A program made the position numbers and the translations under genes. From Thermoprotei archaeon (lineage in GTDB: Archaea; Thermoproteota; Thermoprotei; Thermoproteales; B15-G16), in the NCBI GenBank assembly GCA_003649205.1, contig QMRC01000008.1:20245-84244 (forward strand): a stretch of 64,000 nt of DNA, given 5' to 3'. Under the pieces are notes generated by a model. That model worked only from the letters and a program-made list of their open reading frames with translations, was not told the origin of the DNA and did not search any database. This document shows positions 1-62,258 of the stretch, in pieces. Every line of letters begins with the position of its first letter. Position 1 is the stretch's first letter.

Positions 1-3000
1 ATTAGACGTGACTACTCTTGGAGGAGGCTTAATCACTTTAACAAGCTCGAAGTCTCTATCTATGTACAGTGTATAATTTACAACTTCATTACCAGCAACT
101 AAGTCTAGTGGATTACTTGCATTGACAAACACATAGAGGTACGGAGTCCAAGGCACCTTAATCGTGTAGTTCAACCAGTAGATACCTCTCTTCGTTATGT
201 TTAGATCAAGCATCTTCTTGAATATACCGATCTTCCTCGGCTTAGGAGCAATACCGTACTTGCTAACCACAATGTCTATCTTGGTTAGGGTTTCTAGCAC
301 TCTCGTAGGTGATACAATACCTACACATACCTTTATTGCGTCTTCTGGTAGTATAGCTCCCTTAACTCTCTGTGATACTGGTTCAATAACTACGAAAACT
401 CTAATGTCTACGAATCCCCTAATCTTCTCAACTTCACTCCACAGCTCATTATTTCTAGGATCTGTATCGTTCATGTACTTAACTATCTTGACGTGTGCTC
501 TAACGTAGCCTCCCTCCGTCATGTTTATGCTGAACCACTTCCAGATTGGGTTCATACCTCTCCACAAGTATATTGTCTCTGTTATGTTTCCTAGTAGGTT
601 GAGTGGTTTGCCCTCTGCAGTGCAGTTCCACAGCTCTAGTACGTACGTTATGTTCTGTGGTGTATTTGTCCAGAAGAGTACTGTAACTAGGTGACTGATG
701 TTGCCGAAGTAGTAGCCTAGACCCATGTGTCTCCAGATGTGGCACTCTAGAACAGCTACCTCTGGTGTGTAGAGTGGCGAGTTCTTAGGTACTACAAATA
801 CTAACCAGTAGCACTTATCCATGTGTAGTGTCCTAGTCCAGTTATACTCTCCAGCCTGTACAAATACTTTGACTGTACTGCAGTTCCTAATGTAGAAGTA
901 TGCAAAGCCTGTTCCATTTGTCCTAGTTACAGTTGATACACCTCTTGTTAGGTCAGTAACGTTAACTAGTGCTCCTTCGTAGGGTGCTGTATCGTTGTAT
1001 ATTACCTGTACTGCTAGTACCCACATGTATGTACAGTTTGCGAAGTGTATTGGGTATGGCGGGTGTGTCCAGTTGCTTCCTGCTGGAGGAGGTACAAACG
1101 TTATTGACTGATTGGCAACTACCTTGGGAACTAGATATATTCTCAAGGTCATTGTCTTGTTGAAGAGGTATATCTGCCAATCAGTTACATTGTAGAATCC
1201 TTGCTTGTACACAGATACATTGTACCAGTAACCACTCCACAGACCAAATGTAGCTACACCACTTGCATCAGTATAGTTCGATACCTTGTATCCTCCACGA
1301 GTCTTCTCAACTATTACGAGAGCACTTGGTACTGGTGAGTAATTCAGTGCATTCACTACTTGTACGATTAACTTTGCTGGCATTACGTAGCTGTACCAAG
1401 GTAGATAGAACTCAAGCCAAATACACCTATCTAGGTATACAGTCCTATTCTCATCAAAGACCTGTGTCGTATTGTGTGGATTAACTGCATGTACATTGAC
1501 TACATATGTTCTATTTGCTTGCAACCAGAATACTACGAATCCAGTACCGTTAGTAATTCCTTGTCTAATCAATGTATTGTCGTGATAGACCTTTACCTCA
1601 GCTCCGTGAAATGGCTTACCATCCTTCCACACAACCTGTATAGCCAATGCGTAGAGTACAGTACCGTTCGGTAGCACTATGGTTGGATATGTTGCATTGC
1701 TCCCTTCTGGAGGAGGTTGTACAGTTACGTTCTCAGGTACTAGGTATACGTAGAGCCAATCAACTGTCTCATTCATGAATATAGCACCGTAGCCTGTTCT
1801 GTAACCACTCTTACTAGCCTCAACATACCAAGTCCTCATGGTCACTACCTGTATTGGAGGTGTCCAACCAGTTTCATTTGTTGTGAACGTCCTTAAGTCA
1901 GCCCTATCAGGTCTAGACCACACCTTAACGGTAGCACCTTCAATACCTGTATTAGTCACAGCATCAACTACTCTCACGTAGAGAGTAGCATTCTCACCTA
2001 CTGGAGGTACTACTGTGAGTAGGAGCGGGAAGGACTTCTTATCGTAGTCATCAGACTTCAAGTAGTTACCGACAGAAGCATCAACTACCCAAGCTTCACA
2101 CAGTAACTCTACAGGTCTCTGAACTACTTGATACATCTGCTGTGCCTCAGCTATGTAGTTACCCATGTCAACTATCACAAAGGTGCTATTCACGACATGT
2201 ACCTTCGTTATGTTACTCCACGACTTCACATCAATCCAATCCATCTTCGTCTCATTGAAGTACCTCAAGCTAACTCTCCACTCCACAGTGACATCCTGCT
2301 CTACATTACTGTAGACGTATATGCTGAAGTGTCTTGGAGCTGTTGCAGTAACTGAGGTACCATTGAAGTATATCTTCAACCCAGCATTGGGAGGTAGTAC
2401 TGTGTAGATGATGAATGTGTAGTTCTTACAGTACTGTAGAGTACCGCCGTTAACTGGATCGAGCCACTTAGTCCTAGTTCTGGATATATAGACATAGTAT
2501 GCGGTTTCATTTATTGTGTAACTACCATTGAATTCAAACATGTTACCATATCTTCTCCACAACTCGTAACCTAGTATGTCCTTGAATAACTTCTCATAAC
2601 CTTCAGCAATGTAGACGAGATGTCTAAATGTACCTTCTTCAAAGCTGTACACTCTCTCTATCCATATAGCTGGCTTCTCTACGTCTAAGATCTTTACACT
2701 TCTTATTCTCATTACAGTATTCTTAAGTGGGAAGTGGAGAGAGCATCTATATCCATAGTCGAATTCCTTGAGTGGTACCTTGATGACAGTATCTGCCTCC
2801 AGCATTATATCTGCTAGGAAACCAGTCATGTTGCCAAATGATATTTCAACATCTTTTAGAAATGGTAAATCAACATCGTAGACAACACCTGTACTTGTTG
2901 CTCTACCAACTACAGTTACTTCATAAGGTATGTTCACTTGCTCAATGACTCCACTAATCTTAATACGTGGAATTATATTAAGTATCTTTACTGGATCCTT

Positions 3001-5505
3001 AATTACTTGCTTTTTCATGGTACCTACAGCGTCAATGCTAACGACATTTATTTGTAGTCCTGTCTTGAATGGTACGCCTCCTCCAAACCACTGTAGTAAC
3101 GTTATCTTTCCTTGAACTATGTGTAGTACAGTTATGTAGACTGAAGTTATCTTCAATCTCTCAGCAGGTATACCACGCTCAGCTACTAGATACTCCATTA
3201 CATCCGTCACTATGTTGTATGGAGGTAGTTTACCAGTTTTCAGAACCTTATAGTATTCAGTCCATGTCTTACACTTTGGAGGGTAGTAGTAGATTACGTT
3301 CTCGATACCTAGTGTCTTAGCTGTCTCCACAACACACTTCTCAAGCATTTCATAGTCCTTAAACTCTTCAGGTACGTAGATCCTCACTACGGTGTACTTG
3401 TCTCCAGTAGCACTATCAACTATGACAGGTATGTACATGATAAATATGTAGTCCTTAAGACCAACTCTGTACGGTTCTGGAATGACCTTTAACTCTGATA
3501 ACACTAGGTAGGATACATCGAATGTAAATACTGCTCCAAGGATTTTCCAGTAGGCTACGGATAGTGTTTTTACGGGTAAGGTCATCATTTGTTCTGCTAG
3601 AACCTCTCCAGCCATTCCAAATACAGTAGCTGAGAAGCTTACGAAATGTGTTTTAGCTAGATTAACAATACCGAGAAGAGCATGGTACGGTATTCCTGTA
3701 CCAAAGGTGAGCATTACTGCTCCCTTTAGTTCTGAAGTCCAAGGATCGTAGGTTAGTAGTAATTCACTTACTGCAACTTTAGGAATCACCGTTATGTTGT
3801 TGTATAGTGCAACTACTGGTGTTCTCAGAGGTACATTGATTACACATGCATACGATGTGAATCCAGTTCCGAAGAAAGGTGTAGTATCGATTCTACCCCA
3901 TGCAGATAGAAGTAAGGTGTTCTTAGTTGGGTACACATACTTAAACTTCTCAATAGCACCTCCTTCACTGTGTACAGCAAACCAACCCTTGTGAATCTTC
4001 TTAACATCTCCCTCAATATAGTACTTACGTAAGTACTCAGGAATTAAGCTAGTTCTCACCTCATGAGTGAATAGCTTTGAAATAGTTAACTTGAACCTAG
4101 TAAAGTAGTAGTAGTTCAAGGGTAGCTTTATGAGAAGTGAGTGTCCTAAATTGACTCCAGAGTAGGAAATGTATAGTGTACCCTCAAATGCTACTCTCGG
4201 TATCTTTGTCTCTGGCTCTGCTTTGATGAACTCTAGCTTGTAAATCTTATAGTCAGTATAGAGAACATTGCTTTCCCAATCATAGTATCGGTACAGTGGC
4301 TTACCTCCGAGTGAAAACTTTACCATAGTAAGATTTTGTGGATCTACTATACCTACCTCACTCTTATTGAATGCTAGAATTAGATTATCATCGTAATCTA
4401 GACATGTTGCTAGGTGAAGTCCCCATACACTACCTCCATACGCAGGTTCTGGTGTTGGATCTACTCTTACACTCAATTCTTTAATGTCTACTGGAGGATA
4501 GTAGAGCCATAATGTTCCATTTACATCATCGACAAAAACTATACCTCTCTTACACAGTGTTACGTAGTTAAGAGGAAGTCCAAGTATGACATCGTTACCT
4601 ATATCCAGTAGTGCATTTATTTCCTTTGTTGTATATAATTTACCTGTCTCTCTATCGTACATGAATACTATTGATTTCTTCGTATAGGTTGACGCTATGA
4701 ACCCTATGACGTGAACACCATCGAAGTAAACTATTTCACACCAACGGAAAGGACTTGCTGGAAACGGTATATAACTTGGCACTGTCTCATTAACTCCAAT
4801 CCAAGTTCCTACCTTTACCTTGTCTAATAAAGTACCTGCTGTGTTGTAAATCTTGAGGTAAACATCGTAGTAGTAAACCTCTACTCCTTTCTGAGTATCA
4901 ATTTCAGTTTTTATATGTGTAAGGTTTAGAAGTGCTATTTTACCATCTATAATTTGACAATAGATATTATATGCTGAACCCTTAGCAATCTCTGGGAGTT
5001 TATGCAGAAGAACTAGTGAACCATTGAAAACTGCTATATAGATATTATACTCTCCTCCAGTACTAGGTGAAATTAGATTTCGTACAAGAAGATGTACAGG
5101 AAGAGATGTCTTCTTTTCGATGGCTAATATGGACGATAAAGCTATTCCCTTGTATGCAATTACTTTATATTCCTTAGTCTTTATATTAATAACATAGAGG
5201 TAATCAGCTACATCCTCTCCAAAGATTAGATCTCCTATAGCATAGGCTCCGCTCCAACCCGAAATTACTAGGTTGACTTTCTTTTTCTCGATATCGACAT
5301 GAACTATTCCCTTTCCCTCTGGAAGATTGTATAAGTATTTGGTGTTGTGTATGATACCTGCGAACTGAAGATCTCGAGATAGTCCTATTGCTTGAGAGAG
5401 AACTGCTATTGGTTTTTTAAACTGTAACTCTAGGCATGATGTTGGTAATATTAGAGCTATCAGTATAAGGCAGAGTACTGTTAGAATGCTTTTTCCATAC
5501 TTCAT
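1..5505 (-). CDS. Giant secreted/surface protein (>1835 aa, 3' end beyond the window), beta-rich with Ig/carboxypeptidase-regulatory-like modules; putative adhesin or spike
   Basis: Missing from the ORF track because it is truncated. ATG at 5505 with RBS AGAGGTG upstream. Starts MKYGKSILTVLCLILIALILPTS (signal peptide). The same frame is open at the window edge (..DRDFELVKVIKPPPRVVTSN). Contains IEGATVKVWSR..TTNETGW-type modules and many N-x-S/T sites. I did not check every codon. Confidence 0.85.
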   Translation of the reverse strand, partial: MKYGKSILTVLCLILIALILPTSCLELQFKKPIAVLSQAIGLSRDLQFAGIIHNTKYLYNLPEGKGIVHVDIEKKKVNLVISGWSGAYAIGDLIFGEDVADYLYVINIKTKEYKVIAYKGIALSSILAIEKKTSLPVHLLVRNLISPSTGGEYNIYIAVFNGSLVLLHKLPEIAKGSAYNIYCQIIDGKIALLNLTHIKTEIDTQKGVEVYYYDVYLKIYNTAGTLLDKVKVGTWIGVNETVPSYIPFPASPFRWCEIVYFDGVHVIGFIASTYTKKSIVFMYDRETGKLYTTKEINALLDIGNDVILGLPLNYVTLCKRGIVFVDDVNGTLWLYYPPVDIKELSVRVDPTPEPAYGGSVWGLHLATCLDYDDNLILAFNKSEVGIVDPQNLTMVKFSLGGKPLYRYYDWESNVLYTDYKIYKLEFIKAEPETKIPRVAFEGTLYISYSGVNLGHSLLIKLPLNYYYFTRFKLTISKLFTHEVRTSLIPEYLRKYYIEGDVKKIHKGWFAVHSEGGAIEKFKYVYPTKNTLLLSAWGRIDTTPFFGTGFTSYACVINVPLRTPVVALYNNITVIPKVAVSELLLTYDPWTSELKGAVMLTFGTGIPYHALLGIVNLAKTHFVSFSATVFGMAGEVLAEQMMTLPVKTLSVAYWKILGAVFTFDVSYLVLSELKVIPEPYRVGLKDYIFIMYIPVIVDSATGDKYTVVRIYVPEEFKDYEMLEKCVVETAKTLGIENVIYYYPPKCKTWTEYYKVLKTGKLPPYNIVTDVMEYLVAERGIPAERLKITSVYITVLHIVQGKITLLQWFGGGVPFKTGLQINVVSIDAVGTMKKQVIKDPVKILNIIPRIKISGVIEQVNIPYEVTVVGRATSTGVVYDVDLPFLKDVEISFGNMTGFLADIMLEADTVIKVPLKEFDYGYRCSLHFPLKNTVMRIRSVKILDVEKPAIWIERVYSFEEGTFRHLVYIAEGYEKLFKDILGYELWRRYGNMFEFNGSYTINETAYYVYISRTRTKWLDPVNGGTLQYCKNYTFIIYTVLPPNAGLKIYFNGTSVTATAPRHFSIYVYSNVEQDVTVEWRVSLRYFNETKMDWIDVKSWSNITKVHVVNSTFVIVDMGNYIAEAQQMYQVVQRPVELLCEAWVVDASVGNYLKSDDYDKKSFPLLLTVVPPVGENATLYVRVVDAVTNTGIEGATVKVWSRPDRADLRTFTTNETGWTPPIQVVTMRTWYVEASKSGYRTGYGAIFMNETVDWLYVYLVPENVTVQPPPEGSNATYPTIVLPNGTVLYALAIQVVWKDGKPFHGAEVKVYHDNTLIRQGITNGTGFVVFWLQANRTYVVNVHAVNPHNTTQVFDENRTVYLDRCIWLEFYLPWYSYVMPAKLIVQVVNALNYSPVPSALVIVEKTRGGYKVSNYTDASGVATFGLWSGYWYNVSVYKQGFYNVTDWQIYLFNKTMTLRIYLVPKVVANQSITFVPPPAGSNWTHPPYPIHFANCTYMWVLAVQVIYNDTAPYEGALVNVTDLTRGVSTVTRTNGTGFAYFYIRNCSTVKVFVQAGEYNWTRTLHMDKCYWLVFVVPKNSPLYTPEVAVLECHIWRHMGLGYYFGNISHLVTVLFWTNTPQNITYVLELWNCTAEGKPLNLLGNITETIYLWRGMNPIWKWFSINMTEGGYVRAHVKIVKYMNDTDPRNNELWSEVEKIRGFVDIRVFVVIEPVSQRVKGAILPEDAIKVCVGIVSPTRVLETLTKIDIVVSKYGIAPKPRKIGIFKKMLDLNITKRGIYWLNYTIKVPWTPYLYVFVNASNPLDLVAGNEVVNYTLYIDRDFELVKVIKPPPRVVTSN

Positions 5506-5515
5506 TTCTACACCT

Positions 5516-5920
5516 CTATGGTTTGGGTATTAGTGGCATTTTGACTAGTTTTTCTCTTAGTTCTCGTGGTAGTAGCTTCTCTAGTTCTTTCTCTACCTCT
5601 TCATCGCTTACTAGGTGACCGTACTTCATGAGTAGTATCCTGTAGTCTCCTACGTACTTCTCGAACTCACTTGCAAGCTCCATCCACTCCTTGTCCTCAA
5701 CAGGTGCGAAGATGAATTCATCTGGTAGGTACTCAGCTCTACCGTAGCAAAGTATCATCAAACCCCTGTACTTCCTCCCCTTCTCCTCTATGGTAAAGGA
5801 TATGTTCCCGTACTTCGTCCTTATCATCGGTAACCCGCCAATTGCTAGACACATCTTAGCAAACTTCACAAGCTCCTTAATCGCTTCTCTAGAATTCTCA
5901 ATAACCAACCTAATACCCAT
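5516..5920 (-). CDS. Hypothetical protein, paralog of 6030-6338
   Basis: Shares F-xx-C-xxx-GG-xxx-IRT-x(1,2)-YG and L-x-C[YW]G with the neighbouring ORF. Confidence 0.75.
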   Translation of the reverse strand: MGIRLVIENSREAIKELVKFAKMCLAIGGLPMIRTKYGNISFTIEEKGRKYRGLMILCYGRAEYLPDEFIFAPVEDKEWMELASEFEKYVGDYRILLMKYGHLVSDEEVEKELEKLLPRELREKLVKMPLIPKP

Positions 5921-19881: not shown

Positions 19882-20324
19882 GGTCTAGCGAACCTCACGT
19901 GAACTTTCCTAACCTCGATGTACGGCTTTCTCCTCTTCAACCTACTGATGAAGAACCCTAGCTTATCTAGGAACTCCCTTATCTCACCAGCTTTCAAGCT
20001 CTTCGTTATTATTAGCTCGTCGTCGTGGTATAGGAGTGGGATATCTATTTCCTCCATTCCGTAGAATCTCCTAATTACGTTCAGTAACTTGCTGTACTCC
20101 TCACTAGATAGCTCTGCAACCCATCTAGTACCTCTCGGTACTGAGACATTGATGTTAACTCCAGTTGGTGACTTCACTAACTCAATCTCTATATTACCAA
20201 GTCTTCTATCGGGAACAATGCACAGTGCTAGATCTCCTCTGACATCGCACCCAACCTCTATGCCGTACTTCGAGAATATTTCCTTAAGCTCAGACGCTAC
20301 CTTAGATATCTCAACCTCAGCCAT
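19878..20324 (-). CDS. Hypothetical protein
   Basis: Operonic ORF. Confidence 0.65.
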   Translation of the reverse strand: MAEVEISKVASELKEIFSKYGIEVGCDVRGDLALCIVPDRRLGNIEIELVKSPTGVNINVSVPRGTRWVAELSSEEYSKLLNVIRRFYGMEEIDIPLLYHDDELIITKSLKAGEIREFLDKLGFFISRLKRRKPYIEVRKVHVRFARP

Positions 20325-32181: not shown

Positions 32182-33144
32182 GTGAGTGTGTTGAGTGCGA
32201 GGGGTATTCGTGAGAGGTTGAGGGAGAAGGCTAGGGAGATTGAGGCTGAGGAGATGGAGGAGGAGAGGAGACCAGAGCTAGATCTCTACACCTTAGTCAG
32301 CATGGTGGCACCACACGAGGCATTGATGCTGTTTGGGGGTACGAGGACAGGTAAGACTACGTTCTGTTACGTGGTCGTTAGGGAGGCAGTTGAGAAGTAT
32401 GGTCTAGATGCAGTGTACATAGATACTGAGGGTAATCTACACTGGAAGCTACCTCCAAAGGCACTGTACTACCGTGTATCAGGGCTAGATGACCTAAATG
32501 CAGTGATCAATGAGGTACATAGGAAGTTGATTAGGGAGGAGATTGGGCAGAATGGTCTCGTAGTAGTAGTTGACTCTCTTGAGGCGCCTGTACTGAGGTC
32601 AGCGGGCTCTAGTAGGAGCTTCTATTACAGAGCACAGGCATTTATGACACGTACAGTGCTTGGTGATAGGTTGATCGCTATTGCTAATGAGTACTCTAAG
32701 AAGTACGATAAGCCATTTACAATACTGATAACTGAGCACGCTAGATCTGAGATCGGTCTATCTAGGTTAATTGAGCAGGCAGTGAGCAGTGCTAGGGGTG
32801 AGGAAGGTGAGGGGAGGAGGAGTAGGTTCATTCGTCCTGAGGAGGTACCTCCTGAGATCAGGTTGCTGTACACGAGACCTAAGGGAGGTTCACTGCTGTA
32901 CCTAATAAAGGACATCTGGGTTACTGAGCAACTTGAGGCATATGCTGATGAGAGTGGTTACAAGAGGACGACATGTGGTGTCTATGCATGGGGTTCGAGA
33001 GCGTATGCTAGGATGGAGAGGGTTGCAACATTGAACATAGAGACTATACCTGAGCGAGGTAGGAGGAGAGTTAGGATTACCTACAAGATACATGCAACAC
33101 CAATACCCTTATTTGGTGTTGAGCCAGAGATAGCTCCTGAGTAA
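32182..33144 (+). CDS. RecA/RadA(B)-like recombinase ATPase
   Basis: Walker A GGTRTGKT, YIDTEG, Walker B VVVDSL. Confidence 0.85.
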   Translation: MSVLSARGIRERLREKAREIEAEEMEEERRPELDLYTLVSMVAPHEALMLFGGTRTGKTTFCYVVVREAVEKYGLDAVYIDTEGNLHWKLPPKALYYRVSGLDDLNAVINEVHRKLIREEIGQNGLVVVVDSLEAPVLRSAGSSRSFYYRAQAFMTRTVLGDRLIAIANEYSKKYDKPFTILITEHARSEIGLSRLIEQAVSSARGEEGEGRRSRFIRPEEVPPEIRLLYTRPKGGSLLYLIKDIWVTEQLEAYADESGYKRTTCGVYAWGSRAYARMERVATLNIETIPERGRRRVRITYKIHATPIPLFGVEPEIAPE

Positions 33145-33145
33145 C

Positions 33146-34018
33146 ATGCTCAGTAAGGAGCAACCAAGCCCAATACCCTACAGATTTTTCTTCCCCTTCA
33201 TCCAGTCCGTACTCTATGCAAGTAAGTTGACTCTATCTGAGCTACTTCTCCTATGTAGGAGAGAGCTTAAGATTCGTGAGGTTAGGGGAACAAACCTATA
33301 TGTTGTTAGGTCTAGACTACACAAGCTAGGTTTCATAAACGTCAGCGACATATCAAGCTACGTCTACTGTCCAAGACGGTTCTGGTACATGTACAGGTTG
33401 TTAGGTGATGAGGTTAAGGGAGTGATAATATGTGATAGGTATCAGCTACGTAGACTACTAGTCGGTACATATGCACACCTGTGCTTCAGAAACTTCGTGA
33501 ACTACCTAACCTCAAAGCTCCGTTCACTAGGTGCAGATCCACATCTCTACACAGAAGACGAGCTTTACGACTACGAGTACGGTCTAGCAGGGCACGTAGA
33601 TCTAGTCTACGTAGATCCACACGAGGACTACGCTGTCGTCTACGAGCTTAAGTCGAGCTACAGACGTAGAGTACACGATACCTACATTGCTCAAGTACTT
33701 AGCTACTGCTACCTAGTTGAGAAGGCTAAGGACGTAGTAGTTGATAGAGGTTACATAGTTAACTGCTCTGGAATGTGGAGAATACCCTATGCAGGAGATG
33801 AGAGGTCACTCATAAGAGACCTACTTAAGGAAGTACGTAGATGCATCATCAAGGATGAACCCCCTAGTGAGGAGGAATCTGCTAGAGTGGAGAACATAAA
33901 TAAGTGTAGAGTCTGCGGATTCAGATGCATCTGTCTTCAAGATCTCGAAACCGAGAAGAAGCTAAGGTCTAGACTTGTCGAGGAGTTTCCTGAAATACGT
34001 AGAGTGCTGAGAAGATAG
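33146..34018 (+). CDS. Cas4-like PD-(D/E)xK exonuclease (Fe-S)
   Basis: SYVYCPRRFW, GTYAH, GHVDLV, YELKS, QVLSY, C-terminal CRVCGFRCIC. Confidence 0.85.
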   Translation: MLSKEQPSPIPYRFFFPFIQSVLYASKLTLSELLLLCRRELKIREVRGTNLYVVRSRLHKLGFINVSDISSYVYCPRRFWYMYRLLGDEVKGVIICDRYQLRRLLVGTYAHLCFRNFVNYLTSKLRSLGADPHLYTEDELYDYEYGLAGHVDLVYVDPHEDYAVVYELKSSYRRRVHDTYIAQVLSYCYLVEKAKDVVVDRGYIVNCSGMWRIPYAGDERSLIRDLLKEVRRCIIKDEPPSEEESARVENINKCRVCGFRCICLQDLETEKKLRSRLVEEFPEIRRVLRR

Positions 34019-34275: not shown

Positions 34276-34647
34276 ATGAGTGGTGTAGGTACTAATGGAA
34301 AGGTATTGGAGGTTGATGTAGAGGTAGTGACGTACTTCAGGGCGAAGTTCAGGAGGAGTAGTAAGGGGTTACAGCACTATAGGTGCTTTGTTGAGTACCT
34401 TGAGAATAGACTCTTCGGTGAGCGTGGTAGGGTAGTAACCTTGAGGGCTAGGCAGTTGACGGAGTATGCTAGTCAGAGATTGAGGACGAGTGACTCCAGA
34501 GCTGGTTTCTATGCGTACCACTTCATTAAGCTGATTGGTAAGCTGTTGAAGAGAGATGTTGAGTGCAATGGAAGAGGTACCTTTATTCAAGTGAGTAGAA
34601 GTGAACTTGAGGAGCTGGTACCAGTCTTGAGAAGTCTCGTGAGGTGA
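34276..34647 (+). CDS. Putative DNA-binding (winged-helix-like) protein co-transcribed with the RAMP gene
   Basis: Basic helical ORF; its stop overlaps the RAMP start (GTGA). Confidence 0.55.
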   Translation: MSGVGTNGKVLEVDVEVVTYFRAKFRRSSKGLQHYRCFVEYLENRLFGERGRVVTLRARQLTEYASQRLRTSDSRAGFYAYHFIKLIGKLLKRDVECNGRGTFIQVSRSELEELVPVLRSLVR

Positions 34648-35270
34648 AGTACATGAGTAGGAGTAGTGTAGGTACCACACCTAAACCACAAATTCCACAC
34701 TTGATACAAGGTCAGGAGGGTGAGCTAGCTCTCCTCGTTATCTGGATGAGGACTATTACGCCAGTCATAGCACCAGCAATGTGTAAGTCAGCTATACAGC
34801 TCTATGCTAGGATTAGGGGGCTAGAGAAGAAGTACGGTAGAGAACTCCTAGATCACGTAGATAGGTTGTTCAAGGGATTTAAGTGCCCAATTCACGGTAC
34901 AGTTGAGCCTTGTCTAGATGGTTCGACGCTGAAGTCCGTGATAAATAACTACCTGAGGTTATTCGGTAGAAAGTACATCACATACGGCATATTCTTCAGC
35001 GAGGACTCGTGCTCATGTGAAACTAGGATCATAACGACTATGAAGAAGGTTAAGAGAGGTAATAAGGAGGAGACTGTCTTAGTTAAGAACCCACTAACCT
35101 ACGAATTCATCGCACCTGAGCAAGAACTTCACGGAGTCTTAGCGACAAACGACAGAGAGGTAATCAATAAACTATCGACACTTGTCAACAAGGTAGTCAT
35201 CATTGGAGGAAGAGTATCGAGAGGCTTCGGTAGAGTCCTAGTTGAAAGAGTGGAAGCAGTACAAATATAA
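34644..35270 (+). CDS. Stand-alone RAMP-superfamily protein (Cas7/Csm3-like)
   Basis: Beta1 VIWMRTITPV (TP motif); PCLDGSTLKSVI (cf. P-x-IPGSSLKG); thumb ETRI..YEFIAP; C-terminal glycine loop IGGRVSRGFGRV. All in the canonical order. Confidence 0.8.
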   Translation: MKYMSRSSVGTTPKPQIPHLIQGQEGELALLVIWMRTITPVIAPAMCKSAIQLYARIRGLEKKYGRELLDHVDRLFKGFKCPIHGTVEPCLDGSTLKSVINNYLRLFGRKYITYGIFFSEDSCSCETRIITTMKKVKRGNKEETVLVKNPLTYEFIAPEQELHGVLATNDREVINKLSTLVNKVVIIGGRVSRGFGRVLVERVEAVQI

Positions 35271-35304
35271 AATCACACCTCTCTTTTCCTTTTTAAGAAT
35301 AGAA

Positions 35305-35721
35305 TGAGGGGTGCTTACCTCGATGAAGTATCTGGAGTTGGTGATAACTAGCTATTAGTACATGCTTTACGCTATGTAGTCCTTAACTACTCATTTACCA
35401 TTCTTCCTTGAATATTCATTCTATACAGTACCTTATGTAGCATAATTATATTAGAAGTTGTGTAGTGGGAATTACCTCAGTTGGAGGGGAGGTACTTGCT
35501 CCCTGATGATAAGTAGTATGCGGAGAATCCTTCGTATCAAGTAATGTATAGCGAATCCTTCATATTGGGTATGATGTCTTTGGTACACTGTATAGTGCTC
35601 ACACTTTCAAGTACCTTGCAAAATGAAGTACATTCACCATGCATACTAACATGTTGTAATTCATAAATTAGGCATTCCTAATTCATGCTAGGTTGTCATC
35701 CGTAACACATTGCTACTGTTT
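35305..35721 (+). ncRNA. Putative guide-RNA array 1: two units, each a GAGGGG..CC..GATGA handle followed by 17 or 30 heptamers NNTNNNN
   Basis: Unit 1 (35329-35447): 15 T + 2 C at heptamer position 3 of 17. Unit 2 (35512-35721): 26 T, 3 C, 1 A of 30. Register set by the GATGA of each handle. Starts about 35 nt after the RAMP stop. RNA status and strand are inferred. Confidence 0.8.
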
Positions 35722-35744
35722 ACCTAGTGTCCAGTGTATGTGAG

Positions 35745-36086
35745 CTATATTGTGTATGTTGGTTTCTCTAGTTCTGGTGTTGTGTTTGTGATTGGTTCAA
35801 TGACTGTATCTCCAAGTATTGCATTCACTATGTTTGACGCTATGACGCATAGGTGTGCAGTTGCTGTATTTAGGTACTTAGCGAGGTCTATCAACACATT
35901 TGGGTCACTATACCTTATCTCAATAGTTGATCCACGTAGGTTCACTACAGCTCTACCACTACACACCTTCGCAAATGTACTTAGTACCTCACGAATTATG
36001 TGCTGAATCTCAGGTTCAAGTCTGTGCATTTCGATAATTAACGAGTTCCTATCTACCTCAACTCTAAAACCAACCTTCCTCTTCAT
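35745..36086 (-). CDS. Hypothetical protein
   Basis: ORF between array 1 and nrdD. Confidence 0.6.
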   Translation of the reverse strand: MKRKVGFRVEVDRNSLIIEMHRLEPEIQHIIREVLSTFAKVCSGRAVVNLRGSTIEIRYSDPNVLIDLAKYLNTATAHLCVIASNIVNAILGDTVIEPITNTTPELEKPTYTI

Positions 36087-36147
36087 GGTACCCTGTGCAC
36101 AAAGTCGTGTTAACTAATTTATATTCTCTTACCTCTAGCTAACGTAC

Positions 36148-36162
36148 TAACCCCTAATAAAT
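36148..36162 (+). promoter_or_regulatory. Promoter motif TAACCCCTAATAAAT
   Basis: Upstream of nrdD; same core as the 28261 motif. Confidence 0.65.
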
Positions 36163-36176
36163 TCTTTAGGAAATAT

Positions 36177-38015
36177 ATGTTCGGTGATTCGATGAGCTTA
36201 GTAGAGCAGTACATTAAGGATCTTGACTGGGAAGTGCGGGAGAATGCTAACATGAGGAGAAGCTTCACACACCTAATAACGTACCTAGGTACCAAAGTTC
36301 TGAAGGACTACACACCAAAGGTCTTCGGTGAGAAAGCTTGGAAGTTACATTGTGATGGCTGGATTCACATACATAAGCTTCCGTTCAGCCTATTGATACC
36401 GTACTGCTTTGGCATAAACACTGCTAAGTTACTGCTTCTAGGTCTACCTACGGAGACAGTTGCCTCTAACCCTGCTAAGCACTTGATATCTGCTTGTGAC
36501 CACATAAAATCACTGACGGTTATCATAAGCCAAGAGTTTAGTGGTGCAACTGCTCTCTCAGCAATTGACCTATACCTAGCACCGTTACTCGCAGAAGACA
36601 TGAAGTTCATTGGAGATGGTAGAGTACTTGAGTGGTACGTAAAGCAAGCACTTGAGGAACTTACATGGGACATAAACTACCCGTATCGCTACGGTTATCA
36701 ATCACCATTCGTGAACCTATTCATCAACTACACGTCGAGCAAGAAGATACTGGATGAACCAGCAATTGTAGGAGGTAAAGTACTTGAGAACACTAGGCTA
36801 GGTGACTACCTCGACTACGCAGAGAAGCTAATCAAGGTTTACTGCAGGTTACTTCTACACGGTGATGCATGGGGTAGACCATTCACATTCCCAATACTGT
36901 CAATCTTCCCAACGAAGGAAATAATGGAGAGCCCCATATGGGAGGACATAGCTCTGTTAACAGCTAAGCGAGGAACATTCTATTTCCTAAATCCAAATGT
37001 CGTAAATCCAGATGACATGTTCTCAATGTGTTGTAGGCTGACTATTAACCACGCTAAGGTTGCTGTTAGGTGTAGGGGTATGTGGACTATACCTGATGAG
37101 ACGGGTAGCATTGGTGTAGTCACGATTAACATGGCTAGGATCGGTATGGAGGCTGTTAAGAGAGGTGATGAGAAGTACATCTATGACCTATTGCTTGAGC
37201 TATTGGGTGAGTGTAGGAAGATTCTAACCATCATGAGGAATAGGTACTATGTGACGATGAACGAGCTAGATATGATGCCTCTAGCTAAGAAGCTAGGTGT
37301 TAGGCTAGAGAACTTCTACAGCACTGTAGGTCTAGTAGCACTACCTGAGTTCGTTAGCGTTGTACTGCAGAGACCGAGGCTATGGTATATAGAGGATAGA
37401 GGTGTTGCTAAGGAAGTCGTGAAGATTTACAGAGACGTACTAACGTTTGTGAACAAGGTGCTTGATGAGTGGGAGAGAGAGGACAATGTGCTGTATAATG
37501 TCGAGCAGGTACCAGCAGAGTCTGCATCGTATAGGCTAGCTGTTCTAGACTATGAGAAGTATCCAGAGTTCAGGAGCTATATACCAGTTGAGGTACCTAT
37601 GTACGGTAGTGAGAAGGTACCCTTCTACAGCAGTCAGAATACACCAAGCTACAGTACGTGGGATCTGAGGCTACAGCTAGAGATTGAGTCTGAGGTACAA
37701 CCGCTCTTCACAGGAGGTGTCATGAAGCACATATTCTTAGGTAGAGAGCTAAGTGTAGATGAGGTCACGAAGTTCGTTAGGCACATCACTGAGAACACGA
37801 AGATAGTGTACTTCAGCTTAACACCAGTACAGACAACATGCAATGACTGTGGCTTCTGGACAACAGGCATGTATACTAGATGTCCAAAGTGTGGAAGTGC
37901 TAAGGTAGATATCTGGAGTAGAATAGTGGGATACTACAGACCAGTGAGAATGTGGAACATAGGTAGGAGAGCAGAATTCAGAACCAGACAACACTACATG
38001 AACATACCAATTTAA
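36177..38015 (+). CDS. nrdD: Anaerobic (class III) ribonucleoside-triphosphate reductase, no ATP cone
   Basis: RENAN, IHIHKL..PYC, FTFPI, SMCCRL, GSIGVVTIN, EQVPAES, CNDC..CPKC, glycyl-radical motif SRIVGYYRP. Confidence 0.95.
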   Translation: MFGDSMSLVEQYIKDLDWEVRENANMRRSFTHLITYLGTKVLKDYTPKVFGEKAWKLHCDGWIHIHKLPFSLLIPYCFGINTAKLLLLGLPTETVASNPAKHLISACDHIKSLTVIISQEFSGATALSAIDLYLAPLLAEDMKFIGDGRVLEWYVKQALEELTWDINYPYRYGYQSPFVNLFINYTSSKKILDEPAIVGGKVLENTRLGDYLDYAEKLIKVYCRLLLHGDAWGRPFTFPILSIFPTKEIMESPIWEDIALLTAKRGTFYFLNPNVVNPDDMFSMCCRLTINHAKVAVRCRGMWTIPDETGSIGVVTINMARIGMEAVKRGDEKYIYDLLLELLGECRKILTIMRNRYYVTMNELDMMPLAKKLGVRLENFYSTVGLVALPEFVSVVLQRPRLWYIEDRGVAKEVVKIYRDVLTFVNKVLDEWEREDNVLYNVEQVPAESASYRLAVLDYEKYPEFRSYIPVEVPMYGSEKVPFYSSQNTPSYSTWDLRLQLEIESEVQPLFTGGVMKHIFLGRELSVDEVTKFVRHITENTKIVYFSLTPVQTTCNDCGFWTTGMYTRCPKCGSAKVDIWSRIVGYYRPVRMWNIGRRAEFRTRQHYMNIPI

Positions 38016-38044
38016 CCACCCTCGACACCTATTCTTCAAACAAT

Positions 38045-38425
38045 CAGAGGGGTACATACCTGATGAAGGACAGAGAATTCCTCTTACGCTATCATCATTT
38101 GTTCAGTTTAGTTTCATAATACTCCGTATCAGTATCCTATGGGTTATAACTCATTATCAGTACCTTGTGCATAATACTCATTTAGTAGTTGAACACCTTT
38201 GAAAACTGCAGTAATCTCCAGCATTGTCTCCTAAGCAACCTGAGGGAGTGTATTCCTGATGAGGGATGTATTTTGCACCTTACACCTTGCGAAGTATAAA
38301 GTCCAGTATTTGAGGTATCAGGTACTCACTAGATATTTTATCCTACATTACTCATGCTATAGTGTCTGAAGTTTCCGATGAGGAATGTCCACTGATCTAT
38401 ACGTTGTGAACTCTAGTAGTTGATT
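38045..38425 (+). ncRNA. Putative guide-RNA array 2 (paralog of array 1): handles at 38045-38068 and 38240-38264, possibly a third at 38366-38383, each followed by NNTNNNN heptamers
   Basis: 38069-38200: 16 T of 19 units with one 6-nt slip. 38265-38425: 22 T + 1 C of 23. Handles and the 3' tail of the first unit resemble those of array 1. Confidence 0.8.
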
Positions 38426-38503
38426 TCGTTCTGTGTAGTACAGCTGTTTGTCTGCTCTCGGTGTGAGTCCTTATAGTTTCGGTAACTTGTATTGCTGTTA
38501 GCT

Positions 38504-38809
38504 ATGAGGTGTAGTGGTGAGAGTGCGTATGAGTTGGCTAGGAGGTTGCTGTTGAGATCTCTCCTAGTGTTGAAGCAAGGTACGAGGAGTTCAGGGTTCT
38601 GGATAACACCGCATAAGGTAGCGAAGATCAATAAGGTGAGTGGTAGAGCAATCGGTAGATTCATACACATGTTACTGAGTGAACTTGAGAAGGAAGGACT
38701 AGTTCAAGGAATGAACACTGGTAGTAGAAGGTACTCAAAGAAGTACTACGTCAAGCTAGATAACGTAGATAAGTGCATTGAGTACTTGAGAAGAACTAAG
38801 TACCTCTAA
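38504..38809 (+). CDS. Winged-helix DNA-binding protein
   Basis: ITPHKVAK..GRAIGRFIHMLLSELEKEGLV; ATG at 38504 preferred over the track start 38492. Confidence 0.65.
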   Translation: MRCSGESAYELARRLLLRSLLVLKQGTRSSGFWITPHKVAKINKVSGRAIGRFIHMLLSELEKEGLVQGMNTGSRRYSKKYYVKLDNVDKCIEYLRRTKYL

Positions 38810-38879
38810 TCCTCTTTTTCCTTGCTACCTACCTTACTTTACAATACTTATTTAGTTGTTTCTGTGTTGTTTAGTATTG

Positions 38880-39485
38880 ATGTCGGTCTGCATAATTCTC
38901 GACACATCTACTCTCACTTACATGCATGAGAGTTGGTTACACGGTGTTAGGTCTGCGGTACACCATGCTAGGGAGTCTGTAACTCATCCGAGAACTCAAG
39001 AGGCTCTTGCTAGGAGGAGGGTTGCTGAGTACTTGAGTAGGGTTCTCGGTGACTACTGTCTCTACGGTGCTACTTGCTACGTGACGAAGTCTATCAAGGA
39101 TGAGGTTGAGGCACTTGCTGGTGAGTACAGAGATCTCTACGAGGCAATTAAGGACTTCCTAGATAAGGCTAGGGTAGGTGAGGTGAGTGCTGTTGCTACT
39201 AGAGAATTCGAGTTCGTTAAGTCTGTTGCAGAGAGGAGAGGGTACAGAGTTGTTGAGTCTCCTGAACTTGAGTGGAGGTTGAAGAGGAGAGGTATACGTG
39301 CTCTAACGTACGGTGATATCGAGGCTATTGCAACAGCACTATCACGTGGTTGTACACTCGTAACTGGTGACAAGGATGTGTACCAGCTAGCTAGGGAAGT
39401 AGGTGCTAAGGTACTGTACCTATACGAGGACTACGTACAGGAACCAATCAAGAGAGTAGCTAAGAGAGTACTACCTCGGAGGTAG
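38880..39485 (+). CDS. PIN-domain (VapC-like) ribonuclease
   Basis: IILDTS, KDEV, GDIEAIATA, LVTGDK; no adjacent antitoxin obvious. Confidence 0.8.
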   Translation: MSVCIILDTSTLTYMHESWLHGVRSAVHHARESVTHPRTQEALARRRVAEYLSRVLGDYCLYGATCYVTKSIKDEVEALAGEYRDLYEAIKDFLDKARVGEVSAVATREFEFVKSVAERRGYRVVESPELEWRLKRRGIRALTYGDIEAIATALSRGCTLVTGDKDVYQLAREVGAKVLYLYEDYVQEPIKRVAKRVLPRR

Positions 39486-46338: not shown

Positions 46339-47922
46339 GTGAGGTGTTGGTGTGTGGGTGTTGTGAAGTGTGAGGTTTCTGACAAGTGGACTGTAGAGTC
46401 TGGTGATTACTACCTAGGTAATAAGTATCATCCTGTTGCTGTAGTTGTCCCTGCTAAGGACGATGTTGGTAGGAGGCTTATTAAGACTGCTATTGACGAG
46501 GGTGTTGCAATAGCTGGTTTCTGTCAGACAGCTAACATTGGTATTGAGAAGGTAGTTATCAATGTGCTGGCTAATCCAAACATTAGGTACGTAGTCATTG
46601 CAGGTCACGAGTCTAAGGGTCATAGAAGTGGTGAAGCACTGTACTGTCTATGGAAATACGGTGTAGATCTTGTGACTAAGAGAATACTGAGGTGTGGTGC
46701 ACCAACAAGCTACCTACCAAATCTACCGATTGAGGTAATTGAGAGGTTTAGGAAGCAGGTAACTGTCATACCGCTGTTCACAGACGATAAGGGGTACGTA
46801 CCTAGCTCAGTCACTAGGATCAGAGTAGGGTCTAGGGAATTCAAGGTACCTATCCACGCTGGTATGAGTAAGCAATTTGGCTTTACTGTTGTTGATGTGT
46901 GTACTAGTGAGGAGTTGCTGAGGTTCATCATACACTGCTGTATTCAGGAACTTGAGAACAAGGTAACTGTAGGTATTAGCAATAGGTACCTAGATGTCTT
47001 CGAGGTCTACGAACTCTACGATAAAGGAGCATTCGATACTAAACCACTCATATACAAGGTAGTACATGAGGAGTACGTACCTGAGGTAAGGGTTGTAGCT
47101 AATTCACCAATTGGTGTATTTGTCGAGGCACCTGACCTAAAGCACGGCTACAGAGCCGTCATGCACTTAATCGATGAGTTGGGTATTGAGGTACCTACGA
47201 GACATGGCTTAACTAAGGAGCTTCAGTACGTAACCATAGTCTACCGTAGCATACCTAGGTTCGACTTCAGTGAGGAGAATGGTAGAGTTAAGGTAACGTA
47301 CATGGATGAGAGCCACATACCAGACGACTATCCACTGAAGAGCCCTCACGACATTAGGCGGTACTGTGAGGCTTTGCTCAATGGTGAGGCACAGATCGAG
47401 TTTCACTATACCTACGGTGAGAGGATGAGGCACTTCTTCAACTACGAGATCACGAGGTTTAGACCTAAGCTAGGAGATGAGCTGTGGAGTGAGCTAACTA
47501 AGAAAATCCTCATTCAGAGTATGTTCATTAGAGAGCCCCCTCACGAGGTCTTACAGAGAGCAGTTGTGAGGTTATGTGAGGTAGATCAGCTTAGAGCAGT
47601 CATAGAGAACATCGCTAAGGCACCGAACGAGAGATTCCACGTGATTGCGTACTGGAATCCAGTGACTGACCACAGAGCTGATGTGCATCACCCATGCTTC
47701 GTAATGACGCAGTTCATGATTAGGAACAGTAGGTTGGTGACGTGTCACTACATTAGGTCACACGACTTCGAGAATGCACACATACACAATACATACGGAG
47801 TATCAGCAATAGCTAACTACGTAGTGTGGAAGCTCAAGAGATTAAACCCACAGCAATTCAGTAACCTAGACGTAGGTGAGTTAGTGTACGTAGTAGGTAG
47901 CTGTCATAAATACGTGAGGTGA
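46339..47922 (+). CDS. thyA: Fusion: MtrA-like corrinoid-binding domain + archaeal-type thymidylate synthase
   Basis: N-terminal GDYYLGN, AIAGFCQTANIGIEKVVINVLANPNIRY, GHESKGHRSG, YLPNLP..IERFRKQV (MtrA). C-terminal YTYGERM, HPC, RSHDF..HN (ThyA). Confidence 0.85.
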   Translation: MRCWCVGVVKCEVSDKWTVESGDYYLGNKYHPVAVVVPAKDDVGRRLIKTAIDEGVAIAGFCQTANIGIEKVVINVLANPNIRYVVIAGHESKGHRSGEALYCLWKYGVDLVTKRILRCGAPTSYLPNLPIEVIERFRKQVTVIPLFTDDKGYVPSSVTRIRVGSREFKVPIHAGMSKQFGFTVVDVCTSEELLRFIIHCCIQELENKVTVGISNRYLDVFEVYELYDKGAFDTKPLIYKVVHEEYVPEVRVVANSPIGVFVEAPDLKHGYRAVMHLIDELGIEVPTRHGLTKELQYVTIVYRSIPRFDFSEENGRVKVTYMDESHIPDDYPLKSPHDIRRYCEALLNGEAQIEFHYTYGERMRHFFNYEITRFRPKLGDELWSELTKKILIQSMFIREPPHEVLQRAVVRLCEVDQLRAVIENIAKAPNERFHVIAYWNPVTDHRADVHHPCFVMTQFMIRNSRLVTCHYIRSHDFENAHIHNTYGVSAIANYVVWKLKRLNPQQFSNLDVGELVYVVGSCHKYVR

Positions 47923-55142: not shown

Positions 55143-55622
55143 TTCCTACTTGATTCTACTGTCTTGAGGGTTGCACTATAAGATGTATTCTTAAGTTTAA
55201 GTTCTTCGGGAAGAGATCTAGTTAATTTATTGTTAATAATGTTTTATTTCTAGTTGCTTCTCCTCATTCTACTGCGAGAGGTTTTATGGGAGAACTTTTA
55301 TATTTCGCAACTTCATTAATATTATTGGGATTGTGTAGAACAACTGCTCTTCTAAATAATTCTACTTCTGCTAGTAATTGAACCTACTTCATAGATCTAC
55401 TCCTACTTGTGCACCCCCAGACCCACAGGGTCTGGGGGGAAGAACCTGACCCAAATGGGGATGATGGGAAACCCCCTCCCCTTCTTTCAAGGTTAAGGGG
55501 GAGGGGGTATAGGTCGGGAAATCTCCTTTCCTCTCTTTCTTTTTCTCTACTGCCCCTGAGGGGATGCTCGGGAGATGATGAATAGATCCTGAGCACCGAT
55601 GAGTTGGGGCAAATCTCTACTT
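55143..55622 (+). repeat. Cluster of about nine YCTACT motifs
   Basis: CTACT near 55146, 55156, 55269, 55362, 55384, 55397, 55403, 55547, 55617. Confidence 0.6.
55414..55611 (+). ncRNA. GC-rich structured RNA (three stem-loops, C/D-box/K-turn-like motifs)
   Basis: CCCCCAGACCC/GGGTCTGGGGG 11-bp stem; ACCCCCTCCCCTT/AAGGGGGAGGGGGT stem; TGCCCC/GGGGCA enclosing CTGAGGGG..ATGATGA..CTGA..CCGATGA. Confidence 0.6.
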
Positions 55623-61691: not shown

Positions 61692-62258
61692 GTGATGAGT
61701 ATGGGTATAATTATGGAATATACCAAGTTGCATAAGTGGTTACCAAGGATTGTAAGAGGGAGTGTAGATGATGTCTTTTACTTCAGAGATAGAGTGTTGC
61801 TACCGTACATTGAAATCACAGCTAATGACAGTGAAGAAGAAATTGTTACAGCACTACGGAGAGAAAGATACGTTGTTCTTGGTCTCTATGGCTTGAGGGG
61901 ACTTCTCCCTGAATGTGAGTGCAAGTACTGTAACCCGCCTGAGCACCTGTGCTACAGACACCGTACTCTGTATGAATGGGATCTAAAGTGGACAAGTGCT
62001 GTCACTAGCAGGCTTGAAATCTCGTGGAGTTCACTGTGTGACTGGTGTGTGTTTGCAAGAGTACCAAGTCACATCGGCGGTTGTTGGGAACTAGAGTTCA
62101 CACCGAAGGAAGTGACGATCACAAGACCGTGCGGTGTTGCTTTCAAGTACAGAATAACTAGTAGAAGTAAGGTGAGGAGTTACTTCATTGCCCTAGTAAG
62201 GTTGTTCATGGAATTGCAATGGCTTGAAGAAATTCTCAAATCAGAAGACGATTGCTAG
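61692..62258 (+). CDS. Cys-rich hypothetical protein
   Basis: CECKYC..HLC; RBS GGGGTGA. Confidence 0.65.
   Translation: MMSMGIIMEYTKLHKWLPRIVRGSVDDVFYFRDRVLLPYIEITANDSEEEIVTALRRERYVVLGLYGLRGLLPECECKYCNPPEHLCYRHRTLYEWDLKWTSAVTSRLEISWSSLCDWCVFARVPSHIGGCWELEFTPKEVTITRPCGVAFKYRITSRSKVRSYFIALVRLFMELQWLEEILKSEDDC

Follow-up and report, generated by a model that had tools for sequence, protein, structure and literature searches.

The 64,000-nucleotide stretch analysed here (the window) is positions 20,245 to 84,244 of contig C8, an 84-kb contig (GenBank QMRC01000008.1) in the genome of a Thermoprotei archaeon. This genome, G000, comprises 2.07 Mb (2,066,741 bases) in 31 contigs and is 93.8% complete. 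The window (G000:C8:20245-84244) encodes a lone repeat-associated mysterious protein (RAMP) of the Cas7 group and, on the same strand, contains two arrays in which T recurs at every seventh base. The locus is best read as an element-borne RAMP-RNA module that resembles VIPR, is built on a Cas7-type protein and uses a new RNA grammar. In VIPR, according to the accessible parts of preprints from 2026, a lone viral RAMP reads a gapped 5-nucleotide RNA code, and the system is proposed to be the root of CRISPR effectors.

The gene of the solo Cas7-like RAMP occupies positions 34644-35270 of the plus strand (coordinates without a contig name refer to the window). The first array lies directly downstream of it and the second follows the next plus-strand gene, nrdD. 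Together they contain five copies of a short handle, A to E, each followed by a tract that is free of open reading frames (ORFs). The first handle starts about 32 nucleotides past the RAMP stop codon, and all five handles and tracts are on the plus strand.

Period-7 tracts

The frequency of T at the best period-7 phase is 0.61 in the first intergenic region (35271-35740) and 0.68 in the second (38016-38430), whereas no other period between 2 and 12 exceeds 0.51. A log-odds periodicity scan was run over all 31 contigs and 2,066,741 bases, with periods 4, 5, 8, 10, 11 and 13 as controls. The two highest-scoring period-7 T segments of the genome are both in the arrays: 35493-35717 (T in 29 of 33 units, score 24.2) and 38253-38421 (24 of 25, score 24.1). 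The best period-7 segment elsewhere is one of A and scores 17.4; the best of T scores 16.3. The maxima at the control periods are 16.4-18.5 for T and 16.3-22.7 for A. Tract A has a score of 13.7 (16 of 18 T). About 20 weak period-7 segments are scattered through the genome, on a par with the control periods. One of the segments in the window, 55177-55268 (13 of 14, score 12.2), lacks a handle and is at the noise level. The periodicity of the array tracts, which the first-pass annotation had pointed out, is confirmed by the genome-wide scan as real and extreme.

A base-by-phase G-test, in which each tract was compared with 500 shuffles, has its peak at period 7 alone, with z values of 8.9 for Tract B, 5.6 for D, 3.7 for A and 1.0 for both C and E. 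At period 5 none of the five tracts exceeds a z of 1.2. The known vrRNA tract of SUSP1 gives z of 8.6 at period 5 in the same test, which therefore behaves as expected on a known case.

The heptamer register was set beforehand from the GATGA of the handle. In this register T is found at the third position in 15 of the approximately 20 heptamers of Tract A (35329-35470), 26 of about 32 in Tract B (35512-35735), which is the strongest periodic segment of the genome, 13 of 14 in Tract D (38265-38362) and 6 of about 8 in Tract E (38384-38440), the end of which is not defined. Tract C (38071-38235; about 23 heptamers) is out of step: T occupies position 3 in 11 of 23 units and position 2 in 14 of 23, which amounts to a slip of one base. 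The earlier counts of 15/17, 26/30, 16/19 and 22/23 are close to these values, if slightly generous, and the claim that the tracts start in register with their handles holds for A, B, D and E but not for C. Over 100 heptamers, T occupies position 3 in 79 and position 7 in 42 but position 2 in only 9, where 71 have a purine.

The tracts are T-rich (0.34-0.35). They fold into no more structure than their shuffles do (z of -0.91 and +0.27), as would be expected of single-stranded guides rather than of structured RNAs. No sequence is common to the 3' ends of the tracts; the conserved element sits at the 5' side.

Kink-turn handles

The handle that precedes each tract has the general form xxx-GA-hairpin-GAT-GA-xxx, with a hairpin of 3-6 base pairs. 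Its parts are those of a kink-turn (as defined in the accessible part of PMC5435971): the hairpin is the canonical stem, GAT the 3-nucleotide bulge ending in U, the two GA elements form the tandem G.A pairs, and the flanking bases form the non-canonical stem. Handle A (35302-35330) reads aat-GA-GGGGT-loop-ACCTC-GAT-GA-agt and Handle D (38238-38266) reads cct-GA-GGGAG-loop-TTCCT-GAT-GA-ggg. They score 35.8 and 37.8 bits, respectively, with a model, R1, built from three handles, and Handle C (38043-38070) scores 39 bits. The minimum-energy fold of Handle D contains the outer stem, a 2/5 asymmetric loop and the hairpin. Handle B (35480-35513; 15.3 bits) has a longer hairpin of 6 base pairs with a 7-nucleotide loop, and all three of its flanking pairs are standard. 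Handle E (38364-38385; 13.2 bits) is degenerate, CTGA..GATGA, and has no clear hairpin. The handles of the window are about 120-230 nucleotides apart and only partly alike.

A related locus, G440:C24, is present in a second genome, G440, which belongs to the same order but to a different family. Counting both loci, GA, a 3-6-bp hairpin, GAT and GA are found in order in 8 of 9 handles of the GA-hairpin-GATGA type (4 of 5 in the window and all 4 at G440:C24). For the pair counts, the handles were lined up on GA and GATGA by a script. Eight handles, four of each locus, give 24 cells for the flanking pairs; 21 of these are standard, and several pair types occur at each position. At 493 look-alike sites elsewhere in the genome only 610 of 1479 pairs (41%) are standard (binomial P of 6e-7). 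GA and GATGA are invariant, whereas the hairpin is GGGG/CCTC in the window and CCC/GGG in G440, the pairing being kept and the sequence swapped. RNAfold predicts the hairpin as the most stable structure for 11 of 12 handles and draws the 2/5 asymmetric loop in several. The first-pass description of the handle as K-turn-like is thereby borne out. These features of the handles argue for an RNA element and for the strand of the RAMP gene as the functional one.

The generic handle pattern has 43 matches in the genome, which cluster at the RAMP locus alone. Model R1 recovers Handles B and E and three of the four G440:C24 handles at 11-15 bits, among about 24 chance matches, and was not used for the pair counts. 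Its match in genome G160 lies in a coding region, lacks GATGA and was discarded. Rfam matches are absent between 34000 and 39000 at E values up to 10 and, at gathering scores, from the window as a whole.

Another conserved structured element, with three G+C-rich hairpins, is found at 55420-55600 and at G000:C26:150-260. It has no RAMP gene nearby and no Rfam match; a Moco match next to it is due to chance. The middle hairpin of this element, CTGACCC-loop-GGGGATGA, is a kink-turn of the same type as the G440:C24 handles.

The RAMP protein

The RAMP ORF has 208 codons if read from GTG. The ATG at 34653, with GGTGA 5 nucleotides upstream, is the likelier start and results in a protein of 205 residues, which matches the database form. 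Residues 133-198 match the Pfam RAMPs family (PF03787) with 26.2 bits against a gathering cut-off of 22.1, and with 26.5 bits in a six-frame search; just 2 of 22 members of the protein's own family pass this cut-off individually. That family was collected with phmmer from 1.84 billion cluster representatives, which yielded 24 proteins at E<=0.001, mostly of 160-250 residues. Its alignment contains the motifs xxPIxAP, KYG, H-L-D-R-V-F-x-R, GS..+GALN, G.FF.E and TL...E.I.P, as well as a G-loop. Two residues, D73 and F76, are invariant, and G194 is nearly so. The G-loop, IGGRVSRGFGRV, aligns with IGGFKSRGFG of type III Cas7.

Matches of the family profile in the Protein Data Bank (PDB) are almost exclusively type III RAMPs: Cas7-2x (5.9e-4), III-D Cas7 (1.1e-3) and also Cmr4, Csm3, Csm5 and Cmr6. 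In 401 genomes of the phylum the profile touches 27 cellular ORFs, 25 of which are of the Csx7/Csm3/Cmr4 type by NCBIfam and one Csx10. Alignment of the family to these type III Cas7 ORFs with hhalign gives a probability of 97.6% (E of 4.5e-12) over the C-terminal 60 columns. With a 215-residue RAMP inside a type III locus the probability is 95.5% (E of 1.4e-8) over 111 columns, which start at the GS motif and reach the G-loop. The significant profile homology to the Cas7 group spans the end of the thumb through the G-loop. On sequence grounds the protein is classed as a Cas7-group RAMP and not as a demonstrable Vipr of the characterised type; its likeness to Cas7/Csm3, which had been claimed from motifs, is upheld by the Pfam and hhalign scores. 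An ESM Atlas feature search, which returned RAMP clusters at 0.90, gives a lead only.

In type III Cas7 the Asp in the loop that precedes the PGSS motif is catalytic. The family has D73, within H-L-D-R-V-F-x-R, at a distance of 20 residues upstream of the G of GS; for D-x-A-V-x-R of the Cas7 set, a parallel motif, this distance is 18. The hhalign alignment stops short of the region.

The family is rare. Among the 401 phylum genomes no strong match was found besides the window gene itself. A viral contig collection contains no member by single-protein searches with the window protein and P0002-P0006, a genome contig collection gave zero matches to P0011 and P0002, and a tblastn search of 50,697 phage records gave zero matches to the RAMP. 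A metagenome candidate, L032, proved to be a false match, namely MurC in a bacterial cell-wall cluster.

Related loci and strain variation

The family is carried by 2 of 120 genomes of the class, G000 and G440. G440 contains two full-length copies of the RAMP gene, on C24 and C1, and a truncated one. Directly downstream of both full copies, on the same strand, there is an ORF-free array with 3-4 handles. The G440:C24 array has four GACCC-loop-GGGGATGA handles spaced about 90-100 nucleotides apart. In the G440:C1 array the handles are three CCGATANATGAGG hairpins, which are tandem-GA hairpins of a different topology. Handle patterns in G440 are almost confined to the arrays, which contain all 3 matches of one pattern and 3 of the 4 of the second. 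BLASTP comparison of the three neighbourhoods shows that the RAMP is the sole protein in common and that there is no conserved accessory gene. The gene and its array therefore travel as a unit.

The truncated copy (G440:C120:3403-3642, L038) corresponds to the first ~80 residues of the G440:C1 RAMP, after which the gene is disrupted. A lone CCGATACATGAGG handle at G440:C189:82977-82989 (L060), far from any RAMP gene, is possibly a solo unit.

Diverged copies of the window locus are present in contigs of two metagenome runs. Between strains the RAMP gene differs at 2 positions in 497 nucleotides and 5 in 578, and the 5' part of nrdD at 2 in 1021, 1 in 329 and 0 in 460. The arrays differ by 40 substitutions and 17 gap letters in 553 nucleotides, by 22 in 515 and by 9 in 298. 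They therefore diverge about 5-20 times faster than the flanking genes, with one cluster of 8 changes in 13 nucleotides.

The proposal that the tracts are guides against host or rival-virus nucleic acid found no backing in searches for their targets. In the own genome, under skip rules of 0, 1 and 2, the best match is 26/36 compared to 25-27/36 for reversed guides. Searched with BLAST, both arrays match the 120 class genomes at chance level only (best E per genome 0.0025) and phage records not at all; habitat viromes lay outside the search.

The mobile element and its host

C8 behaves as a mobile element that is targeted by its host's own CRISPR spacers. Two of the 52 spacers read from the G000 array at C1:269683-282746 match it, one at C8:82285-82328 (41/44; window 62041-62084) and the other at C8:68036-68070 (34/35; window 47792-47826). 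The tetranucleotide correlation of C8 with the core genome is 0.968, compared to 0.988-0.996 for chromosomal contigs of similar size. The annotated ORFs of C8 include a set of replication, repair and nucleotide-metabolism genes: a family B polymerase, helicases, an Hjc resolvase, a thymidylate synthase, an RNA ligase, a serine recombinase, NrdD with its radical-SAM partner, and two Cas4-like PD-(D/E)XK nucleases. Of the 69 ORFs scanned, the majority match no family. Because neither a capsid gene was recognised nor a terminal repeat found on C8, it is termed a virus or plasmid-like element and not a proven virus. Other spacers of G000 match contigs C17 (48/50) and C27 (44/44), and these two contigs of the bin are probably mobile elements as well.

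Contigs from metagenome runs labelled as sediment, seawater or hydrothermal vent contain near-identical DNA. Five runs from five studies share at least half of the sampled words, and one of these runs may be the source.

The host has a type III-B-like locus (G000:C11:29021-36241) with Cmr2/Cas10 in a 1190-residue frame and two RAMPs above the Pfam cut-off, and Cas1/Cas2 on C1, C4 and C11. The solo RAMP of C8 coexists with this full type III system. No second RAMP, Cas1, Cas2 or Cas10 (TIGR02577, TIGR02578) was found on C8, where Cas5 and Cas11 were not searched for on their own, and Cas6_C has zero matches across the whole G000 genome. The solo status of the RAMP, as first annotated, stands for these proteins. 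The tandem repeat finder TRF detected no CRISPR-like repeat in the window, in agreement with the annotation.

Comparison with known systems

VIPR, as described in the accessible part of the main preprint (bioRxiv 10.64898/2026.04.26.720920), combines a lone viral RAMP with vrRNA made of 5-nucleotide YNNGG repeats (variants NNNGG, YNNNG and NNNNG), a 3' tail and vap genes, and has seven types, including ones of archaeal viruses. A structure preprint (10.64898/2026.04.26.720927) and a satellite preprint (10.64898/2026.10.15.759431) also describe 5-nucleotide repeats in their accessible parts. The C8 locus shares with VIPR the lone RAMP on a virus or mobile element, the flanking ORF-free arrays, units of about 100-200 nucleotides with a short tandem period, fixed and variable positions and one conserved structured end, and the faster change of the arrays than of the genes. 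The two are different in their details. The period of VIPR is 5 with GGY fixed, while that of the C8 locus is 7 with one fixed U. VIPR has a 3' tail or pseudoknot instead of the 5' kink-turn handle, and its vap accessory genes have no conserved counterpart in C8 and its relatives. The SUSP1 VIPR locus (L039; KT454805 27500-29511, minus strand) has YNNGG tracts flanking genes of 195 and 146 residues. This locus is easily recognised from its sequence, and neither the 195- nor the 146-residue protein has a Pfam family.

The likeness of the C8 RAMP to Csm3, Cmr4 and Csx7 extends to its size (about 200 residues), to GS..KGA, which aligns with PGSSLKGA, and to the D-R-V-F-x-R of the family consensus, which parallels D-x-A-V-x-R. 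Unlike type III systems, C8 has no cas10, second RAMP, Cas1, Cas2 or CRISPR array, Cas6_C is in no contig, and the protein is below every equivalog cut-off. The periodicity of Cas7 is 6 nucleotides, in contrast to the 7 of the tracts. CRISPR arrays consist of near-identical repeats of 24-37 nucleotides with spacers of 30-50 nucleotides, and the host's real array looks quite unlike those of C8. Virus-borne mini-CRISPR arrays and RNA anti-CRISPRs are short repeat-bearing viral RNAs that interact with Cas proteins and copy the host repeat. The C8 handle is unlike the host repeat, however, and the 'spacers' are 60-230 nucleotides long and periodic. With box C/D-type L7Ae sites the handles share the tandem G.A pairs, the 3-nucleotide bulge ending in U, the G+C-rich C-stem and the covarying non-canonical stem, but they head long periodic tracts in tandem arrays beside a RAMP gene and lack a C'/D' pair, the 12-nucleotide guide geometry and an Rfam match.

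In the accessible part of a language-model survey (bioRxiv 10.64898/2026.10.21.760802) periodic clusters occur almost only at 60-79, 18 and 5 nucleotides, and clusters of at least 20 members were required. The single period-7 cluster given there is of another kind: it has fixed tetramers and a reverse-complement copy, is palindromic, comes from Patescibacteriota and has no protein partner. The rarity of the C8 RAMP family may explain why surveys with such a size threshold did not report it. A RAMP-linked 7-nucleotide array with a kink-turn handle was not found in print, in a search that left the VIPR supplementary tables aside, and no literature was found that links the kink-turn, L7Ae, Cas7 and an archaeal virus.

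Proposed mechanism and alternatives

The module would consist of a minimal Cas7-like RAMP and a same-strand downstream array of non-CRISPR RNAs of about 60-230 nucleotides, carried by mobile elements of hyperthermophilic archaea. Each RNA would open with the kink-turn handle (an outer stem of 3 bp, the tandem G.A pairs, the GAU bulge and a short hairpin) and continue as an unstructured tract. Assembly may start at the handle, nucleated there by way of the RAMP or of the host kink-turn protein L7Ae. RAMP subunits would then line the tract with a footprint of 7 nucleotides. In the C8 element U would be kept at the third base of each footprint, which leaves the other six on display as a guide with gaps. 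By analogy with VIPR and its 5-nucleotide code, this complex of protein and RNA would silence, and perhaps cleave, the nucleic acid to which it binds, be it that of a competing element or that of the host. The analysis demonstrates the periodicity, the RAMP homology, the anatomy of the handles, the conserved linkage of gene and array and the setting on a mobile element; these points, together with the rapid strain divergence of the arrays and the precedent of VIPR, speak for the module. Transcription, binding, filament formation, the 7-nucleotide footprint and targeting are all inferred here. That the locus functions as a RAMP-RNA guide system is a tentative proposal, to which we would give slightly less than an even chance. 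If confirmed, it would mean that RAMP-RNA codes are plural and tunable, that an archaeal lineage bridges viral solo RAMPs and type III backbones, and that a universal archaeal RNA motif (the K-turn with L7Ae) is tied to guide-RNA assembly. If true, it would also provide a compact programmable binder of about 200 residues that reads six of every seven bases.

Several observations weigh against this proposal. At G440:C1, T at position 3 of the handle register is found in 24 of 47 heptamers (P of 0.005), a weak signal, with the G-test z of units 2 and 3 peaking at period 7 (2.6 and 2.5). At G440:C24 the count is 19 of 42 against a background of 0.42 (P of 0.37), and there is no other period either. 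The homologues therefore have the downstream handle arrays but a weak periodicity or none. Period 7 is not a family trait; what is conserved is the RAMP and an array of handles of the GA-motif hairpin (kink-turn) type. Even the handles are of three different types, and the CCGATANATGAGG hairpin of G440:C1 does not have the GA-hairpin-GATGA form. Among the 40 strain changes that are listed, of 315 differences in all, the periodic position is hit by 2 of the 15 in tracts, where 2.1 would be expected, and one of the two gains a T and the other loses one. The first-pass idea that the protein reads an invariant U does not fare well against these data. Because the signal is strong in C8, faint in one relative and absent in another, the one-U-in-seven code is unproven as a signal read by the protein.

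The identity of the protein is a further difficulty. The hhalign alignment reaches only the C-terminal 60-111 columns, and the NCBIfam equivalog cut-offs are far off: the best match is Csx10 with 24.6 bits against 177.3, that of relatives is Csx7 with 12.9 against 108.05, and no member reaches its cut-off. The protein may therefore behave like a Cas7, a Cas5 or a Cas6. Comparison of the family with a profile of 33 SUSP1-type Vipr sequences gives an hhalign probability of 10.9% (E of 0.0028), with an alignment that is collinear over 167 columns and not significant. By this measure the C8 RAMP is much nearer to type III Cas7, at 97.6%, than to the SUSP1-type Vipr. The PDB chain 36pp, 'SUSP1 Vipr protein', is found by the Vipr profile but not by that of the C8 family. 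The comparison covers the SUSP1 type, one of seven, and an archaeal VIPR type may contain the C8 family. The relationship to VIPR raised in the first-pass annotation thus stands as a shared concept with a different grammar (7 instead of 5 nucleotides), and finds no significant sequence link to the SUSP1-type Vipr.

A bolder form of the guide proposal is doubtful, in our opinion. The protein would form a type III-like Cas7 filament without Cas10 and Cas5 on long viral guides, in a 7-nucleotide register of six bases read and one pocketed U. A kink-turn cap, perhaps with L7Ae, would replace Cas5/Cas6, and the Asp of D-R-V-F-x-R may cut target RNA every 7 nucleotides. This would be a third grammar beside those of CRISPR (6) and VIPR (5), and a lineage between viral solo RAMPs and type III effectors.

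It is conceivable, but unlikely, that the viral Cas7 look-alike, together with its RNAs, joins the host type III-B Cmr complex or imitates it, either to block it, as an anti-CRISPR made of a protein and a decoy RNA, or to redirect it against rivals. In favour of this, the host has Cas10/Cmr2 and two RAMPs on C11, and the nearest relatives of the viral protein are type III backbone subunits. The element is also under CRISPR pressure, since the host array holds spacers against it. The handles are unlike the host repeat, however, and the family profile misses the host's own RAMPs at E<=0.001, the window gene being its one match in G000. Moreover, the same module is found in unrelated gene neighbourhoods of another genus.

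The RAMP might instead be a Cas6-like or Cas5-like protein that binds or processes the handle, cutting or capping the array at each handle. The unit RNAs would then need no RAMP filament and could be antisense RNAs, for instance, or work in complexes with other proteins. The best-aligned part of the protein, the G-loop region, is common to Cas5, Cas6 and Cas7, the single best NCBIfam match, Csx10, is a Cas5-group protein, and across the three loci it is the handle and not the periodicity that is conserved. We regard this as improbable: 25 of the 27 profile-matched cellular ORFs belong to the Cas7 group and one is Csx10, no Cas6 family was matched, and a register kept so strictly from the handle through as many as 32 heptamers is hard to explain unless the tract is measured.

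There is little probability that the arrays are L7Ae-dependent kink-turn RNAs, box C/D-like or regulatory, that are no more than neighbours of the RAMP gene. Three of the 5 window handles do fit the D'-loop-C' arrangement (CUGA ... UGAUGA), and another kink-turn element occurs on C8 and C26 with no RAMP nearby. The units are 95-230 nucleotides long and have no C'/D' pair, though, Rfam finds nothing at E values up to 10, and gene and array are adjacent in 3 of 3 full-length loci that have no other gene in common.

Finally, the period-7 T could be a feature of the DNA, such as protein-binding or replication repeats, or an accident of composition in T-rich tracts (0.34-0.35) of a genome with some 20 weak period-7 segments, as many as for the controls, but this is very improbable, as the two top segments are above every control, the register is tied to a one-strand element with RNA-type covariation, and 7 bp fits neither the DNA helical repeat nor codons.

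Neighbouring genes

On the otherwise densely coded element, about 5 kb (508-5516) have no ORF longer than 83 residues; no tandem repeats, handle cluster or periodic segment were found there. The second array is followed (38492-39485) by a 105-residue ORF and then by a 209-residue PIN-domain protein (Pfam PIN 8.2e-5, a score precisely on the cut-off), which is a possible RNase neighbour of the arrays and is not conserved at the related loci. Between the two arrays lies nrdD (36177-38015, plus strand), the gene for an anaerobic ribonucleotide reductase (Pfam NRDD 1.1e-119), which is probably outside the module. An ORF of 113 residues without a family (35745-36086) is positioned on the minus strand between the first array and nrdD. 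Upstream, the stop codon of a 123-residue ORF (34276-34647, plus strand) overlaps the start of the RAMP ORF; it has no family and is not conserved at the related loci. One gene upstream of this RAMP operon is a Cas4-like PD-(D/E)XK nuclease (33146-34018; Pfam Cas_Cas4 2.6e-10), and a second PD-(D/E)XK protein is encoded elsewhere in the window. The Cas4-like nuclease is itself preceded by a KaiC/RecA-like ATPase (32182-33144).

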